Assembly (NCBI RefSeq): GCF_006345805.1
Contig: NC_043012.1
Location: 31,558,001 to 31,622,000, forward strand
Length of the DNA: 64,000 nt
Source of the DNA: Octopus sinensis
Lineage: Eukaryota
Direction of reading: 5' to 3'
Both the position numbers and the translations under genes were made by a program. Below the pieces are notes generated by a model. It was given only the letters and a program-made list of their open reading frames with translations. It had not been told where the DNA came from and ran no database searches. Every line of letters starts with the position of its first letter. The first letter of the stretch is position 1. Positions 3,647 through 63,680 of this stretch are shown here, one piece after another.

Positions 3647-3805
3647 AATGATAATAATAATAATAATAATAATAATGATAACATCGAAAAATACCCAGAT
3701 TCGAAATTTACCCAAGACACCTGATGAAGGCTGGAGGGTATATCAGCCGAAACGTTGTGTTAACAACAAACAAGATGAGGACAATAATGTAAATAAGTAC
3801 ATTCA
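3401..3805 (+). mobile_element. Composite element: inverted copy of the 3' end (3401-3515), tRNA-like head (3516-3593), (AAT)n, HHR-containing tail
   Basis: A-box-like GCGTAGTGG and B-box GTTCGATTCC; 3432-3515 is the approximate reverse complement of 3737-3804. Confidence 0.75.
3716..3761 (+). ncRNA. Minimal type I hammerhead ribozyme motif
   Basis: GACAC-CTGATGA-A-GGCTG-loop-CAGCC-GAAA-CG-TT-GTGTT: stem I GACAC/GTGTT, stem II GGCTG/CAGCC, palindromic ACGT stem III. Confidence 0.8.
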
Positions 3806-4255: not shown

Positions 4256-4350
4256 TTATACCGAATCATTCTTCTTACACTATAAATCTCATCAGTCCTA
4301 AGTTATTAGCTTTCATTTTGAATAATGCATATATGTGGTCAGCACAAACA

Positions 4351-4516
<166 letters not shown>

Positions 4517-4518
4517 TT

Positions 4519-5485
4519 ACCTCACCCGCCTGTTCGGGACGACTTTCGGGCCAGGGCCCATGGACAACTTCCAGAGATCCCTGGCCTGGCAGTGCTACCG
4601 AGAAGCGCTACCCGTTCGGGATAAGCTCTACAGACACGGCTCGAGAAACACGGGGCCGACCTGCCCGAGATGCGGTCAGAGCGACGGAACCGTTCTGCAC
4701 GCACTCGTGCAGTGTCCAACAATTTCCGACCTGTGGGCTTATGTCGAACAACTGCTGTCACGTGTGGGACGAGTCGGTTTATCAGCTGAGTCTATCGTCA
4801 ATATTGTCACGTCTCCTTCCTTCAAAAGGGAAGGAAGAGCTATTTTCATCATCCTTGGGGCCATGGCAAAAGAATGTATCTGGTGGACGCGTCTGAAAGG
4901 ATTGGAGACAAACACTTTCCTCTCTGGTCAATCTCTCATCAACTTCTTCAAGTACCACTTGAAAAGGAAAGTGAGAGTAGAGAGACAAGTTTTGTCTAGC
5001 GAATGTTTTAAAAAAAAGATGGGTGAATGTAGCAAGGATGCCACCTTGAGCATAATCCTATGAACCCAGTAATTGAAAACAGAGGGTTACCCACTTGCAA
5101 ACAAATGTGGTAACATATAACAATATTGACCGAGGTTACCGTGGTCTTTTTCGTAGGCTTTTCTTCCCACGGATAAACCTTATCTGCTTCCCCCTTTACA
5201 CCGTACATCATGACACTGTGATACACGATCCCTATTGATCGTTTTTTTTCCTCTTCCCCTTTTTTCCCCTTTTTTCTTTTTTTTTCCTTTTTCTTCTCTT
5301 TTGTTTCTTTTCCTTTTTCTCCCCTTTTTTTCCCTTTTACGATCCCTTCTGATCGAAAACCTACGCCACGTTTTTTTTTGTTTCTTTTGTTTTTTGTTTT
5401 TTGTTTTTTTCATCCCCCAAAAGAAAAGCTCTACATTGTAATTTGTCCCATCTGTGTGCAGCCCTGTGTGGCCAATAAAGAATTT
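4519..5485 (+). mobile_element. 5'-truncated L1/Tx1-like LINE: ORF2 C-terminal zinc-binding region plus 3' UTR
   Basis: ORF 4335-5063 contains [16 protein letters not shown]...[19 protein letters not shown] (CCHC, zf-RVT-type) and KECIWWTR; T-rich UTR ending in AATAAAG; (TATC)n on both sides. Confidence 0.85.
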
Positions 5486-14181: not shown

Positions 14182-14282
14182 GTGTGTGCGTGTTTGTGTA
14201 TACACACATATATACACACGCTCATACACACATATATACATGCAAATATACATATATAATATATATACATACACAGATATAT

Positions 14283-14336
<54 letters not shown>

Positions 14337-14545
14337 AATATATATATATAATATATATATATATATAATATATATATATACAAATCAAATTGCGATAAAA
14401 TAAAAATAATTATAATCGCTGGTATTACTAACACAAGCCATATATTTTTCATATATCAGTACATTAAGGCGAAATATGTGCTAGGAACACAGAAGCTAGA
14501 TAAATTAAGTGAAATGAAGATAAAAACATTTACTAAACCAGTAAT

Positions 14546-14617
14546 TCTCAGACTGCAGTTTCTTTCTTTTCAGCAATAAAGATAATTTATTTGCCCAGGG
14601 AGAATTCTTCAGTGAGA
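14546..14617 (-). ncRNA. Type I hammerhead ribozyme motif, monomer 1
   Basis: Minus strand: TCTCA-CTGAAGA-A-TTCT...AGAA-A-GAAA-CTGCAG-TC-TGAGA; GUC cleavage triplet, palindromic stem III ACTGCAGT. Confidence 0.8.
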
Positions 14618-14940
14618 CCCTGTTTTTCTGGGATCCTAACTCACTAGAAGCATGTGCGTCTAATGATTTACTCTCCCTAACTATCATATCACTGCGCAGA
14701 CTCCGAACGTCCCGACAACACTAGGGAATTCTGGTATATCGCCTGGCGCTCATAATTTATCGAGAAATATGTAAACAAATCAAATTGCGATAAAATAAAA
14801 ATAATTATAATCGCTGGTATTACTAACACAAGCCATATATTTTTCATATATCAGTACATTAAGGCGAAATACGTGCTAGGAATACAGAAGCTTGATAAAT
14901 TAAGTGAAATGAAGATAAAAACATTTACTAAACCGGTAAT

Positions 14941-15011
14941 TCTCAGACTGCAGTTTCTTTCTTTTCAGCAATAAAATAATTTATTTGCCCAGGGAGAATT
15001 CTTCAGTGAGA
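14941..15011 (-). ncRNA. Type I hammerhead ribozyme motif, monomer 2
   Basis: Same core and stems as monomer 1. Confidence 0.8.
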
Positions 15012-15329
15012 CCCTGTTTTTCTGGGATCCTAACTCACTAGAAGCATGTGCGTCTAATGATTTACTCTCCCTAACTAATCATATCACTGCGCAGACTCCG
15101 AACGTCCCGAAACACTAGGGAATTCTGGTATATCGCCTGGCGCTCATAATTTATCGAGAAATATGAAACAAATCAAATTGCGATAAAATAAAAATAATTA
15201 TAATCGCTGGTATACTAACACAGCCATATATTTTTCATATATCAGTACATTAAGGCGAAATACGTGCTAGGAAACAGAAGCTTGATAAATTAAGTGAAAT
15301 GAAGATAAAAACATTTACTAAACGGTAAT

Positions 15330-15397
15330 TCTCAGACTGCAGTTTCTTTCTTTTCAGCAATAAAGATAATTTATTTGCCCAGGGAGAATTCGTGAGA
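15330..15397 (-). ncRNA. Hammerhead motif, monomer 3, core disrupted
   Basis: A 4-nt deletion (plus strand GAATTCGTGAG versus GAATTCTTCAGTGAG) removes CTGAAGA. Confidence 0.6.
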
Positions 15398-15567
15398 CCC
15401 TGTTTTTCTGGGATCCAACTCACTAGAAGCATGTGCGTCTAATGATTTACTCTCCCTAACTAATCATATCACTGCGCAGACTCGAACGTCCCGACAAACA
15501 TAGGAAATTCTGGTATATCGCCTGGCGCTCATAATTTATCGAGAAATATGTATATATATATATCGAG

Positions 15568-15607
<40 letters not shown>

Positions 15608-15654
15608 CATATACACACATACAGTCACACACATACACACTCACATATATACAT

Positions 15655-16280
15655 ATACTATTGTATCTGGGGAGAGTCATTCTCTTTTAAGGCTTTATTA
15701 ATTTAACACACTCACTGGTCTGATTTCCACCAATTTACTTATTTATTTTTACTAAAATTTTGTTGCGTCTTACAACCTTTTCAATAGTCGTTGACTCTAC
15801 CTGTTATCGGAACTCGGTTCTTTGTTCCTCTTTTCTCTGGGCATGCGCGTGCTTCAGTACGTGTGCGCATACACATATGTATGCCATGATAAATCACACA
15901 TTTTTCTCTCTCCTTGTTTTTTTCTGTGTCCTTTTCTGTAGAAGAGCTTAGGCTCGAAACGTAAAAGACTTTTTCTATTCCTGAGCGTTATACTAATGCA
16001 TCTGTTTGTTTTGTACAGCACCTGTCTTCGTCTTTTGTTTTTTTCGTAAACTCTCCCTATGTATGTATGTATGTATGTATGTATGTATGTATGTATGTAT
16101 GTATGTATGTATGTATGTATGTATGTATGTATGTAGTATGTATGTATGTATACCAGTTTGTATGTGTGCATGCGTGTGCGTGTGCCCGTCAAATAAATGA
16201 GTGGAAATCGGACCGGTGAGTGTGTTAAATTAATAAGGCACTAAAAGAGAATGACTCTCCCCAGACACAATAAAATATGC
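15655..16280. repeat. ~75-bp inverted repeat pair (about 15660-15731 and 16200-16273) enclosing a PLE-terminus-like fragment
   Basis: GGGGAGAGTCATTCTCTTTTA...AATTTAACACACTCAC...GATTTCCAC versus its reverse complement at 16201. Confidence 0.85.
15900..16060 (+). mobile_element. Solo terminal fragment (pLTR-like) of the PLE seen at 37370-39275, with HHR-like motif at 15928-15969
   Basis: CTGTAGA-A-GAGC-TTAG-GCTC-GAAA-CG-TA; matches 55545-55718 and, more loosely, the reverse complement of 37370-37520. Confidence 0.65.
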
Positions 16281-37369: not shown

Positions 37370-39275
37370 TCAAATTTACCGAAAACAAAAGACGAAGACA
37401 GGTGACAGAACACAGTCAGGTGTATTAGTTTAACGCACAGGAAGAATGGAAAAGTCTTTGACATTTCAAGTCTAAACTCTGTGACAGAAAGGATTAAGAG
37501 GAAAAATAAAACGGGAGAGAGAAGGAAAGAAATACGGAGAGAGGAAACATATGTATAGGGAATAACGGTTCAACATGATGAGATAGCCGTAAGAAAGAGG
37601 CTGAGTGGAAGGGAGATAATAACGGTGACTCGGTCGAACGATGGGCAAACGCGTGTTTGTATGTGAGAATGGTGAGTGGGGCGAGTGCGTAAGTATATAT
37701 GCAGTTATGGGCGAGCTTAAAATTATGTGGGCCTGTGTGTGTGTGCTTCTAAGTAACCTAGTGCGTACATGTTGTGCGTTTCATGTACTAGTATGTATCT
37801 CAGTGTGTGTGTGTGTGTGTGTGTGTGTTTGGACGTGTGTACATATGTGTAGTGTTATCATGTGCGTGTGTGTGTGTGTGTGTGCGTGTTTGCGCGTGCA
37901 CGTTTGTATGGATGCAAACGCATGAGCCTGTGTGTGTGTATGTGTACAAGTAGGTTAGTGCGTGCGTTGTGTGGAGTGATGTACGTTTCGTGTATTTGTG
38001 TGTATGTGTGTGTGCTTATAGACGTATGTATATGTGCGTGAGGCTATCGTGTGTGTGTGTGTGTGTGCGTGCGTGTGCAAACGCTTCTGTTTAGCAGTTG
38101 ATGTGTGCTTGTTCGGGTGGTGTGTGCACGTGTGTGTGTGAAACCCTATAGTGTGCATATGTATTGTGTATGTTTTTGTGCCACAGTTGTATGCGTTTAT
38201 GCGTGCTGCGTCAGTGCGTATACTGCCTGTGTCCGGGCGTTTTGCGCACTGTGCGTGCTTTTTGAAGTGAATAATGTGTTGTGAGATAGGGGTGGCAAGA
38301 TATAGGGTATCGGAGGTGGGATTGGGCTGAGATGAAGCGAAATAGGAGAGATGAGGTGGGATAGGGGTGAGGGGATGTGGGATATGGTTGAGGGAAGATG
38401 GGATAGGGGTGAGGGAAAGGCGGGATAGGGGTGAGGGAAGGTGGGATAGGGATGAGGGGAAGTTGGGATAAGGGTGAGGAGAGGTGGGATAGGGGTGAGG
38501 GGAGGTGGGATAGGGGTGAGGGGAAGGCGGGATAGGGGTGAGGGAAGGTGGGATAGGGATGAGGGGAAGTTGGGATAAGGGTGAGGAGAGGTGGGATAGG
38601 GGTGAGGGGAGGTGGGATAGGGGTGAGGGGAAGATGGGATAGGGGTGAGGGGAAGATGGGATAGGGTTGACGGGAGTCAAAGGTTGGCAGATATTGGGTG
38701 CTAGTGTGTGTGAATGCATGTGAGTGTGTGTGGATGTAGGAATGTTCATAATGGTGTTCGGTGTGTATACTGAGTTGAACAGTGTGTAGGGGTGTTTGTA
38801 TACACCCCCTATAGTGGCGTGTGTGTGTGGGGGATTATGGTTTGTTGTGTGGGTATTGGGAGGCGCTGGGTGCTGGTGTGTATGGAGGGGGAAGTTGTGT
38901 ATGGGTGTGCGCGCAATGATGTGTGAGGTGAGTTGAGCAGTGTGTTTGGGTGTTTGCACAGTGGTGTGTGGTGAGGGCCTAGTTAGTCGGTGCGCAGGTG
39001 TGGAGGTGGAGGGAAGGGGCTATTGAAAGTGGGAGGTGTCTGGGAAATTGTGTGGGGTTGGAGTTAGATGAAGAGAGAGAGAGAGGTAAATTCTTCAGAC
39101 CACAAGGAGGAAAGGAATGTAGGGAGAAGATTAAATCCTGTTCACAGCGAAGGCGGGAGTCCCGTTGGCCCCTGAGCAGGCAGAAACAGTCCAAACATTG
39201 ACATGTTGTAGCGAATGAACGGTGGAGCAGAAGTGGCGCGAGACCGGGATGTCATTGCCGAGTCTGATGTTTTGG
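37370..39275 (-). mobile_element. 3' end of a second Penelope-like element: GIY-YIG C-terminus, long simple-repeat 3' UTR, pLTR-like end next to (TA)n
   Basis: Minus-strand LQNIRLGNDIPVSRHF...H and RLRCEQDLIFSLHSFPPCGL (PLE endonuclease C-terminal pattern); the end is homologous to the 15900 and 55545 fragments. Confidence 0.65.
38345..38668. repeat. G-rich ~21-22-bp minisatellite (GGGATAGGGGTGAGGGGAAGGT-like)
   Basis: About 15 units, with a ~107-bp higher-order duplication. Confidence 0.9.
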
Positions 39276-60517: not shown

Positions 60518-60576
<59 letters not shown>

Positions 60577-60628
60577 TAAAAAAAACAAGTAAAAAATAGA
60601 AAATGCTAAAATAATTTTATAGTGAACA

Positions 60629-60672
60629 TTTCAGTACCGGTTTCGGTCATTTTGAGACCTTTTCAACTGTAA
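60629..60672 (-). ncRNA. Minimal type I hammerhead in the PLE terminus, with U3-A8 covariant core
   Basis: Minus strand: CAG-TTGAAAA-GGTC-tcaaaat-GACC-GAAA-CCGG-TA-CTG; palindromic stem III ACCGGT. Confidence 0.75.
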
Positions 60673-61438
60673 CGATTAAATAATTAAATTTAGAAAAATT
60701 AGAAGAAAAGTTTTTTTAAAAGAATATTTCTATAGTAGTGTTCAGATTTAAGTGGCATTCTGCCTTTCTCTGACTCCCTTGTTTGCACTTGTGTGTTCGA
60801 GGGTTGTGAGTTCTTGTGTGTAGTAGGTAGGTAGTAGAGTGAAGGCTGGTGAGGAAAGGGGGGTGGGAGAATCTGGGAGTGCCCTGATGGTCGTATTTTG
60901 AATGGTCAGTGGCGGCTGGCAGTCTCAGTTCAATTCAGGAGAATATTTATATTGACAGGCTTGTTTATAGAATTAGCGTAGGTGTTATACTAAAAAACAT
61001 TAGTGACAAACTTAAGGGGTAGGGGGTGAGAAGAAGAAGAAGAGAAGAAGAAGAAGAAGAGAAGAAGAAGAAGAGAAGAAAGGAAGAAGAGAGAAGGAGA
61101 AGGAGAGAGAGATGACGATGATGGTGATGGTGGTGATGATTATGACGACGATGATGATGATAACGATGATGAAGAAGAAGAAGAAGAAGAAGAAGAAGGA
61201 GGAGAAGGAGAAGATGGTGGTGATGATGGTGGCGATGATGATGATGCCGATGATGATGATAACGATGATGATGAAGAAGAAAAGGAAGAAGAAGAAGAAG
61301 AAAAAAACAGAGAAGGGAGAATATGAATGGGTGTAAATATAGCTATGAAGGGGCTGATTAGTAATGGATTCTATGGAGTGTGTAGTATTGGTGTGTGTAT
61401 ATATATTTTTTTTCTTTTATTCTAAAGTTGAGGTATAT

Positions 61439-63586
61439 TAATTGTTTGTCGTAGACCCGTTAAGAAGTGGCTTGTATTTTGTAATAAAGAGATTTTCTTT
61501 ACTTATTCGTTGTCTCGAGGTTGTATCGTCCCTAAATTGGTAGAGGGGGAAAATTCTGAAGTTTGGTGTTTTTTTTGTTGGCGCAAGTATCTATGTGTTG
61601 GCTAAAAGCTATTTTTGTTTTGGGGAATTTTTATCTGGGATCTGTGCAGGGCCATTCGTTTACGCAAACCATTTTTTGTTTGGCCTATGTACTGCTCTTG
61701 ACACCCGGAGCAGGTTAGTGAGTATATTAGGTTCTCCGAAGCACATGTGAAGTTGCTTTTCACTGTAAAACGTTGTCCCTGTTTGAAGGAGAACTCAGAA
61801 CCCTCGATTAGATAGTCGCATATCCCGCAATTGGGTCTTCCACATTTTTTTACTGTCGGCTTCTGTGTTGAAGAGTGAATTCGGCTTGTGTAAGGAGACT
61901 TTTCATGGATCTAGGCTGTCTTTTGCTTTTTATGATCGTGTGTGTTTGGAGGATTGTGTTCATTCTGTGGTCTTTTTTTAGGAGGGGTATGTTGTGGAGG
62001 ATGGTGTCGAAGGCTTCGTTATTGAGAGGGTGTGTGTGGAGATGTATGGTAAGGCTTTTGGTTGTAAGTTTTTCTTTGATTTGGATGTCTCAGTTCCTTG
62101 ATGTTAAGTTGAAGGGCACGTTGAATGCATTTGTCAATAAGTGAAGGTGGATAGTTCCTGGTGATTGGGTATCTTTTAGTTCTTGTAGTCGTGTGTCTCT
62201 GGTGTTTGCGTTAGAGACTATAGTGCATATCCTTTTTGCTAGATTGAAGGGGATATTCATCCTGGTGTGTCTGGGGTGGCATGAATTGAATGGAAGATAT
62301 TGCTTAGAGTCTGTAGGCTTATAGTATATGTCTGTTTCTATTATATTATTAGCTTTCTTAATGAGGATATCGAGGAAGGGGAGTTGTTGTTGGCTATATT
62401 CCATCGTGAATTGGATGTTTACGTCCAGTCCGTTTAAAATTTTCTGGAATTCTATGAGTTTTTCTATATTTTTATACCAAAGGATGAACAGTCATCTAGA
62501 TATCTCTTCCAGTTGTTTTCTATGTAGATGGAGAAAGGGCTGCCATATCTTTCTAGAACCTTACGATACACAGACTGATCTCTAGGTATCCTATGACTAG
62601 GTTGGCAAAGGAGGGGCCATTCGTGTACACATCGCAGTCCCCGATTTTTGTCGGTAGAAGTTGTCATTGAAGGCGAAGAAGTTATTTTCCAGGATGAATT
62701 TAACCCCTTCTATCACAAATTCTTTTTTGATGCGGTGTGTAGTTCGTTGGCGTGATTCTCTAGCCAGAATTGGATTGCCTCTAGTCCTAGGTTGTGGGGG
62801 ATATTGGAGTAGAGGTTGACTACATCGAAGAATACCAGTATGGTGTTTTTGTTTATAGTATTCGGTAGGTGATTGAGCAATATCTAAGTCGTCCCTTATA
62901 TAGCTTTTGACATGTTTGAGGAGTGGTTTTAACAGGGTGTCTAAAAAGTTACTGAGGCGGTGGGTTTCGCATGCGGGACCTGCTATTATGGGTCTCAATT
63001 TGAGGTCATTAGGATTAGGGACTTTAATTATTTTGTCTGTAGCTATCTTGCATGCGTTGCTTATTTTTTCACTTTTGTGGATCTTAGGTATACCGTAGAA
63101 TTGGCTAGTTTTACTTGTGAAATTGGTCATATAATCATATTCTTTGTCGGTTAGCCCTGCTTTGTATGGGTTTACTATGGATTTTAGTTCCCTCATTATT
63201 TTTTGTTGACTGTAGTTTTGTGCCTTTTCATAGTATGTTGTGTCTTCCAGCATAGAAAGTACCAAAGTTATGTAAAATGTCGTATCCATTAAGACAACAG
63301 CACTCCCTTTATCGGCCTCTTTGATTGTTATTGTTTTATCTAGTTTTAATTTGTTCAACTCAGCCCATTCTTTTTTGCTGAAGTTTGGTTTGTGTTTTTG
63401 TTTGTGCATATGTTGATATGGGTAATTTGATATGTGGTCACAGAAATCATCAAGTGTTTTATTCTTACCTTTCGAGGGGGTGTAGTTACTCCTATTTCTG
63501 GCTAACGATTCGTCCTCGTTGTATTTATCGTATAGCTCCTCAGTAAGTCTTAATTTTCTGCAGAATTCTGCGATGTCTTCTTTCAT
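61439..63586 (-). pseudogene. Frameshifted PLE reverse transcriptase / GIY-YIG endonuclease ORF
   Basis: ADKGSAVV, FYGIPKIHK, LRPIIAG, FDVVNLYSNIP, YRQKSGTAM, WKRYLDDC, LPFLDI, YYKPTD...SCHP, CGRPNCGIC, ENLIYSLTCSGCQEQYIGQT and ENLFITKYKPLLN, spread over several frames. Confidence 0.92.
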
Positions 63587-63680
63587 TTCATTTCATTGTA
63601 GTTGGTGGTGTTATATATATATATATATACTAGCAGTATAGCACACACAGATCCTGCCTTATATATATATATACAGATTA

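Follow-up and report, generated by a model that had tools for sequence, protein, structure and literature searches.

The tandem array found in the octopus DNA analysed here (a stretch of 64,000 nucleotides, the window) is, judging from its sequence, a copy of a young and still-recognisable non-LTR retrozyme family, of a kind for which no cephalopod report was found in openly accessible papers, and the insertions of this family are polar, which is a new observation. The array would be a retrozyme insertion made by the reverse transcriptase-endonuclease of a Penelope-like element (PLE), with the retrozyme's own RNA, probably in circular form, as the template and (TA)n as the target, and this reading as a whole is considered probable. 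Of its parts, copying by PLE-type target-primed reverse transcription is very likely, and the circle as the main template is slightly favoured.

Structure of the tandem array

TRF placed a (TA)n-embedded tandem array at 14372-15552 (period 395, 3.0 copies, 96% matches) with bordering (AT)n runs at 14246-14380 and 15546-15613, and because the unit-end motif starts at 14381, 14776, and 15169 the periods are 395 and 393. Thus TRF and the motif spacing together confirm the three head-to-tail non-coding units in (TA)n that an earlier note on this DNA had described. The array has a GC content of 35% and units of 395-396 bp, the unit of the repeat family being a non-coding sequence of 396 bases. No ORF of at least 110 aa was found within the array and no PLE protein match inside the arrays, so the RT plus GIY-YIG ORF between pLTRs that marks an autonomous PLE is absent from them; a tRNA gene was found nowhere in the 64,000-nt window. 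The features of the locus are collected in Table 1.

Table 1. Features of the retrozyme array and its (TA)n surroundings, in window positions
Feature	Positions	Strand	Remarks
Array	14380..15552	-	about three ~395-bp tandem units, read as a single retrozyme insertion
Unit 1	14380..14774	-	3'-most; four substitutions vs unit 2 in last 160 nt
Unit 2	14775..15167	-	
Unit 3	15168..15552	-	core without 4 nt; several 1-nt gaps
Hammerhead of unit 1	14546..14617	-	type I; palindrome ACUGCAGU at 14552-14559; A·A at 10.1-11.1
Hammerhead of unit 2	14941..15011	-	type I; predicted cut 14946/14945
Broken hammerhead of unit 3	15330..15397	-	U4-A7 absent between 15391 and 15392
Predicted monomer	14551..14945	-	395 nt, released by both intact cuts
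Fixed 3' end	14380..14420	-	common to the family (inferred reverse-transcription start); T-rich; weakly resembles resident Penelope-like 3' end
(TA)n target, 3' side of the insertion	14246..14379	.	
(TA)n target, 5' side of the insertion	15553..15613	.	end of the element itself repeated over 13 nt (15561-15573)

The core of the third monomer had been reported as deleted; it is broken indeed, but just four bases are gone, a loss which was seen in one of 135 monomers examined. Since unit 3 also contains several 1-base gaps, part of its damage may be an assembly error. The many gaps of this kind could point to an assembly artefact of a unique sequence, an explanation whose probability is practically negligible and which is refuted for the family, since its copies number hundreds and lie on many different contigs. 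Contigs of all four sequencing runs compared (four of 24 listed; four organism labels), three of them only guessed to be RNA, contain the unit as well as the joint between successive units, where contigs cannot separate a circle from a tandem; therefore this assembly did not create the tandem unit as an artefact.

Four sites in the 3' part of unit 1 carry alleles other than those of units 2 and 3, and these alleles are shared with one other locus only. Template jumping at the cut site was considered as their source and is rare at best, because the arrays are mostly homogeneous.

The hammerhead motif

The minus-strand type I hammerheads proposed for units 1 and 2 were confirmed in both: the CUGANGA, GAAA, and NUH core elements and stems I, II, and III are present and read, from stem I, UCUCA / CUGAAGA / A-UUCU...AGAA-A / GAAA-C-UGCA-G-UC / UGAGA, with predicted cuts at 14551/14550 and 14946/14945, which lie 395 nt apart. 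Stem II (UUCU/AGAA) is lengthened by an internal loop and a distal hairpin, while stem III consists of two pairs within the palindrome ACUGCAGU and the cut-site triplet is GUC. The hammerhead descriptor was matched by 8 of 20,000 dinucleotide shuffles of the unit, counted on both strands, so the match is above chance. The comparison with Rfam, for which the hammerhead models had been recommended, returned neither a hammerhead nor another credible match in the units, even at E 10. Among 135 monomers of 40 arrays the core pattern is intact in 124, and two consecutive units qualify at the locus.

At the locus an A·A mismatch, which the earlier note does not mention, takes the place of the first stem II pair (10.1-11.1). 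According to the accessible part of PMC3088659 this pair is among the most conserved of hammerheads and an active exception with U-U exists, which is known also from the axolotl retrozymes (HHR_Amex2, with U·U instead of the A·A of the octopus family; PMC7229834, seen in part). The canonical G10.1-C11.1 occurs in four of 20 aligned copies, all of them older.

Covariation in stems I and II across genomic copies, the absence of which would have counted against a ribozyme, was seen in 20 hand-picked copies of subfamilies that are 82-99% alike. One stem I pair is C-G in 10 copies, U·G in 2, and U-A in 8, the sixth pair of the same stem is C-G in 6 and A-U in 1, and copy L200 carries a swap from U-A to C-G in stem II; stem III with its palindrome is invariant throughout the set. 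None of 500 shuffles reached the covariation score, a score which the relatedness of the copies inflates. Among 17 units, U, A, and C all occur at N7 and either C or A at position 17, and CUGANGA has U4C in 4 of the 20 aligned copies; the subfamily with this U4C core (L190, L191, L196, and L199) nevertheless spread to several loci. The excess of conservation of core positions over the rest was not significant (p 0.09-0.11), and RNAalifold picked a different fold, in which CUCA is paired with loop II.

Predicted folding and activity

The predicted circle is 60% paired with -85.1 kcal/mol, and 22 of 100 shuffles fold equally well (z -0.8). It is thus not unusually self-paired, strong self-pairing being a tendency described for metazoan retrozymes in the texts available and no defining rule. 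The hammerhead fold lies 10.5 kcal/mol above the best fold of this circle. The duplex of the palindrome is favoured (-11.1 kcal/mol vs +2.2 for the hairpin), and the double hammerhead is more stable than a pair of single hammerheads by 11 kcal/mol, still being 12 kcal/mol above the best fold of the dimer. The ribozyme of the young subfamily is likely to be active, modest and dimer-dependent activity being the best-favoured reading.

Of 22 copies listed, 21 could form a 5-bp pseudoknot CAGGG/CCCUG, in which no compensatory change was seen, and RNAalifold pairs the same loop otherwise. At the locus (14594-14622, minus strand) the loop after stem II (CCCUGRG) can pair with CAGGG just before stem I in a pseudoknot compatible with the ribozyme, or it may pair instead with the 5' strand of stem I and block the ribozyme; both options are kept across subfamilies.

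The family in the genome

The genome searched is microsatellite-dense and comprises 2.72 Gb in 13,516 contigs. The search with unit 1 gave at least 164 matches, taken from the best 40 of 746 candidates; the intact-core pattern gave 408 matches vs 0 in the control and the junction of the unit end with (TA)n gave 205 vs 0, both counts leaving out the older subfamilies (identity down to 82%). The earlier suggestion of a multi-copy retrozyme family of this genome is supported by the 408 core matches together with the type I hammerhead, the palindromic stem III, and the covarying stems.

Substitution distance amounts to 0.64% within arrays and 2.2% between them (254 unit pieces from 64 loci, two of which are halves of one array). 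Most subfamily alleles stay constant along a given array and turn up again on other chromosomes. A single template for each insertion would produce this pattern, and so would homogeneous sources.

Polarity of the insertions

From the earlier note circularly permuted copies would be expected. Instead, the 3' end is fixed and the 5' end alone varies. Of the first 40 arrays 39 share one 3' end position followed by (TA)n, and 31 of 32 loci that were chosen on the ribozyme core alone end at the same base; in the pooled set it is 79 of 80 loci, 33 of which had been chosen on that end. This end lies about 171 nt downstream of the predicted cut. The 5' ends are spread over the whole unit, none of the 80 falling within 3 nt of the cut vs 225 unit passes across it, and 11 of 80 start at TATA/ATAT vs 2.8% of positions; for a few diverged or inverted loci the 5' end was placed approximately. 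The two largest contigs (1 and 2) carry 35 end matches, which correspond to 33 loci with lengths from 35 to 11,281 nt, of which 12 stop before the cut and 17 are shorter than one unit, while the longest arrays reach 18-29 units. Inverted 5' pieces were found in two loci (L077 and L166). At the array ends the unit sequence stands directly against (TA)n, in a dispersed, multi-copy, non-LTR pattern.

A fixed 3' end with scattered 5' ends speaks against a linear monomer, cut and then copied a single time, as the template, and the polar ends indicate that copying began inside the RNA. This polarity is consistent with internally initiated target-primed reverse transcription, as far as can be read from insertion ends. 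A circular template is compatible with fixed 3' and variable 5' ends, and an uncut multimeric transcript is equally so. One lone array (L040, G000:C3, near 29734031) ends one base before the cut and without (TA)n; a search of the following 20 kb did not recover the rest of it, and it is a single case.

The same ends bear on the proposal that the arrays are a satellite, in which single pLTR-derived copies were expanded in place by unequal crossing-over without any RNA multimer or circle; such an on-the-spot route is discussed in the accessible text of Li, Clavereau and Pollet 2026 (10.64898/2026.07.22.740005). In favour of it are the period-3 patterns of L032 and L066, a period-2 pattern in L043, scattered, interspersed haplotypes in L047, and the arrays of 18-29 units, whereas insertions of 1.0-1.9 units are common, possess the fixed 3' and the free 5' end, and already cross the unit joint, and crossing-over requires a pre-existing repeat. 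The incomplete last unit of L066 does not carry the period-3 marker, a sign of local duplication after insertion, and for this reason a trimeric circle as the source of the period-3 pattern was rejected for this locus; for L032 such a circle may apply. Local duplication accounts for the later growth of arrays and not for their birth, and the satellite as the sole route, a highly improbable explanation, is largely refuted.

Penelope-like elements and the source of the reverse transcriptase

The window contains a broken PLE (61440-63592, minus strand), ending in (TA)n at 60572. Over 60572-63592 (minus strand) it shows RT, zinc finger, and GIY-YIG as well as a 3' pLTR with a U3-A8 hammerhead variant at 60635-60666. 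Its relatives elsewhere in the genome include intact open frames of 784 aa, which match RVT_1 with E 3.5e-8 (above the Pfam cut-off) and GIY-YIG with E 4e-4, just under the cut-off, and which contain the C-x4-C-x2-C finger; this finger marks the Neptune and Nematis clades according to the part of 10.1101/2021.04.23.441226 consulted. The PDB yielded no relative for the PLE ORF.

The pLTR of the resident PLE carries the type I U3-A8 hammerhead, and its end in (TA)n comes in two forms, one of which has a tail of about 40 nt; they resemble the pair of start sites used by the anole PLE (PMC11167929, seen in part). The last bases of this PLE match the retrozyme end at 26 of 37 positions, a value reached by 63 and 62 of 2,000 shuffles (about 3%). 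It was one of three families tried, the other two being without a match, and 121 of 9,238 PLE candidates were scored; since the match is weak and limited to one family, that PLE is a candidate partner only. The search for a PLE with the exact end of the unit found family members only, and no PLE with clear homology. Nevertheless, the Penelope-type mobilisation that had been suggested for the array is better supported than before, through the polar ends, the (TA)n target, and the intact PLE ORFs.

A fixed 3' end with 5' truncation is general to target-primed elements, and so a microsatellite-targeting LINE could have supplied the reverse transcriptase instead of a PLE. The weak end match between retrozyme and PLE and a fragment of LINE type within the window leave some room for such a source (zf-RVT, 4326-5063, plus strand, Pfam E 5.8e-7). 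Copying that starts inside a tandem RNA without poly(A) or a tail repeat argues against it, and the resident PLEs likewise end in (TA)n and carry type I hammerheads, while a second tandem family with two alternative 3' ends and inverted heads is PLE-like. On balance a LINE is an improbable supplier, though somewhat less so than the satellite route.

Circular or linear template

The preferred mechanism, PLE-driven insertion of a retrozyme copied from its own RNA, may be outlined as follows. The arrays would be transcribed on the hammerhead strand, neighbouring ribozymes would cut as a double hammerhead through the ACUGCAGU palindrome into 395-nt monomers, and a host ligase would close these. 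The PLE protein would then nick (TA)n and reverse transcription would start inside the RNA, about 171 nt past the cut; the enzyme would cross the ligation site, proceed for a variable distance, and drop off, leaving insertions from 35 nt to several units, some of which may expand later through local duplication.

In the main alternative the PLE-driven insertion is the same, but its template is a linear multimeric RNA left uncut; the young subfamily would then have a slow or vestigial hammerhead, and circles would be minor. It is a doubtful alternative that nevertheless has several observations on its side: the A·A at 10.1-11.1 together with the blocked predicted fold, the anole PLE, whose hammerhead is dispensable and whose main substrate is uncut RNA (PMC11167929, accessible part), and the inactivity of 8 of 9 predicted Xenopus dimers (10.64898/2026.07.22.740005, likewise seen in part). 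Moreover, read-through of the cut site is expected equally, and homogeneous source arrays also yield homogeneous copies. Against a linear multimer stand the compensatory changes and the invariant palindrome over subfamilies 82-99% alike, and a weak hint of stalling on a circle given by loci with a 5' end shortly beyond a completed turn. There are 16 such loci, at least 11 of which hold about one unit. The first count of their excess (16 loci vs 2 and 4 in control windows) is void, because the control anchors were present in just 4 and 7 of the 16, and fairer anchors gave 11 and 23 loci; for 14 independent loci p is 0.008 vs an extrapolated decay and 0.22 vs a flat rate, so whole-turn ends as stalls on a circle are a hint.

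A more specific version of the circular route is tentative and less likely than not. In this version the PLE reverse transcriptase starts at the fixed internal site on a ribozyme-made circle, rolls round it, and often stalls after one turn, and in the youngest subfamily the A·A mismatch and the switchable pseudoknot would replace G10.1-C11.1, sparing the circle from cutting itself.

Other hammerhead-like repeats

The second tandem family has a unit of about 503 bp (L176:2066-3925, also L177-L180) and is unrelated in sequence, with the same ACUGCAGU stem III; its 3' ends border (TA)n at a distance of 166 or 252 nt from the cut, downstream of it, and it has inverted heads. Other hammerhead-like matches with the same stem III palindrome, among them loci L130-L148, number 1,150 vs 63 in the control. 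One family of these has the loop CAAAUA and both C3-G8 and U3-A8 cores, often as inverted pairs, and no PLE ORF was found within 1.5 kb of the 20 loci of this type examined.

Minimal hammerhead-like motifs on the plus strand of the window at 3721-3756 and at 15936-15963 (CUGUAGA), the latter about 400 bp from the array, are probably ends of other Penelope-type repeats. By eye, an inverted pair of about 60 bp (15658-15725 and 16200-16270) surrounds a minimal hammerhead motif and is perhaps a MITE. The window also contains a G-rich tandem repeat at 38354-38675 with periods of 43, 64, and 107 and G-quadruplex-like runs.

Comparison with known systems

The closest described elements are the metazoan non-LTR retrozymes (Cervera and de la Pena 2020, PMC7229834, compared through the available part of the text), chiefly the 350-390-bp family of Mytilus galloprovincialis. 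Common features are non-coding tandem units in the range of 150-450 bp with GC below 45%, one type I hammerhead per unit with a two-pair stem III and tetraloop, a series from dimers up to large multimers, and co-resident PLEs. The octopus family differs from them in lineage, in sequence, and in the long, internally looped stem II; its target is (TA)n, where a duplication is unreadable, unlike in the retrozymes of that study, and a fixed 3' end with 5' truncation is not among the features given for them in the portion consulted. The hammerhead repeats of newt and axolotl satellite-2, treated in the same source, likewise have a weak palindromic stem III and a predicted need for a dimer, but they count about 120,000 copies vs hundreds in the octopus, where activity is predicted.

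With the vertebrate non-LTR retrozymes, which are PLE derivatives (10.64898/2026.07.22.740005, available text), the octopus family shares the co-occurrence with PLEs and the two consecutive units with complete hammerheads by which an active element is defined there. In the text seen no mollusc is mentioned, the octopus unit is without a clear pLTR homologue, and the polarity of its ends favours birth as more than one unit, as opposed to local amplification alone.

The Neptune and Nematis PLEs and the mechanism of the anole Poseidon PAc (PMC11167929; 10.1101/2021.04.23.441226; PMC4209133; all in part) offer the third likeness, namely the AT-rich target with internal initiation described for the anole PLE, the fixed internal start downstream of the hammerhead, 5' truncation, partial tandems, and inverted heads. 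Compared with these PLEs the octopus family has no ORF, carries a full hammerhead rather than the minimal pLTR form, and was seen without a second "tail" end.

In a literature search that covered openly accessible papers no report of a cephalopod retrozyme or of polar retrozyme ends was found; in the accessible text and supplement of PMC13282606 the word "ribozyme" is absent.

Significance

Since retrozymes are already known, the class itself is unsurprising and the value of the family is that of a test system. As far as the accessible text of the publications goes, it is open in print which retroelement moves animal retrozymes, and whether they multiply by rolling-circle or by local amplification (PMC7229834, PMC7761336, 10.64898/2026.07.22.740005). 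Both questions become testable in vitro with this family, since its ends are clean and polar, its subfamilies form a dated series, and the same genome encodes intact PLE proteins as candidates. If the fixed internal start and the rolling on a circle are true, they would provide direct genomic support for a proposed and unproven retrozyme life cycle and name its motor. The octopus family would also extend retrozymes to a cephalopod.
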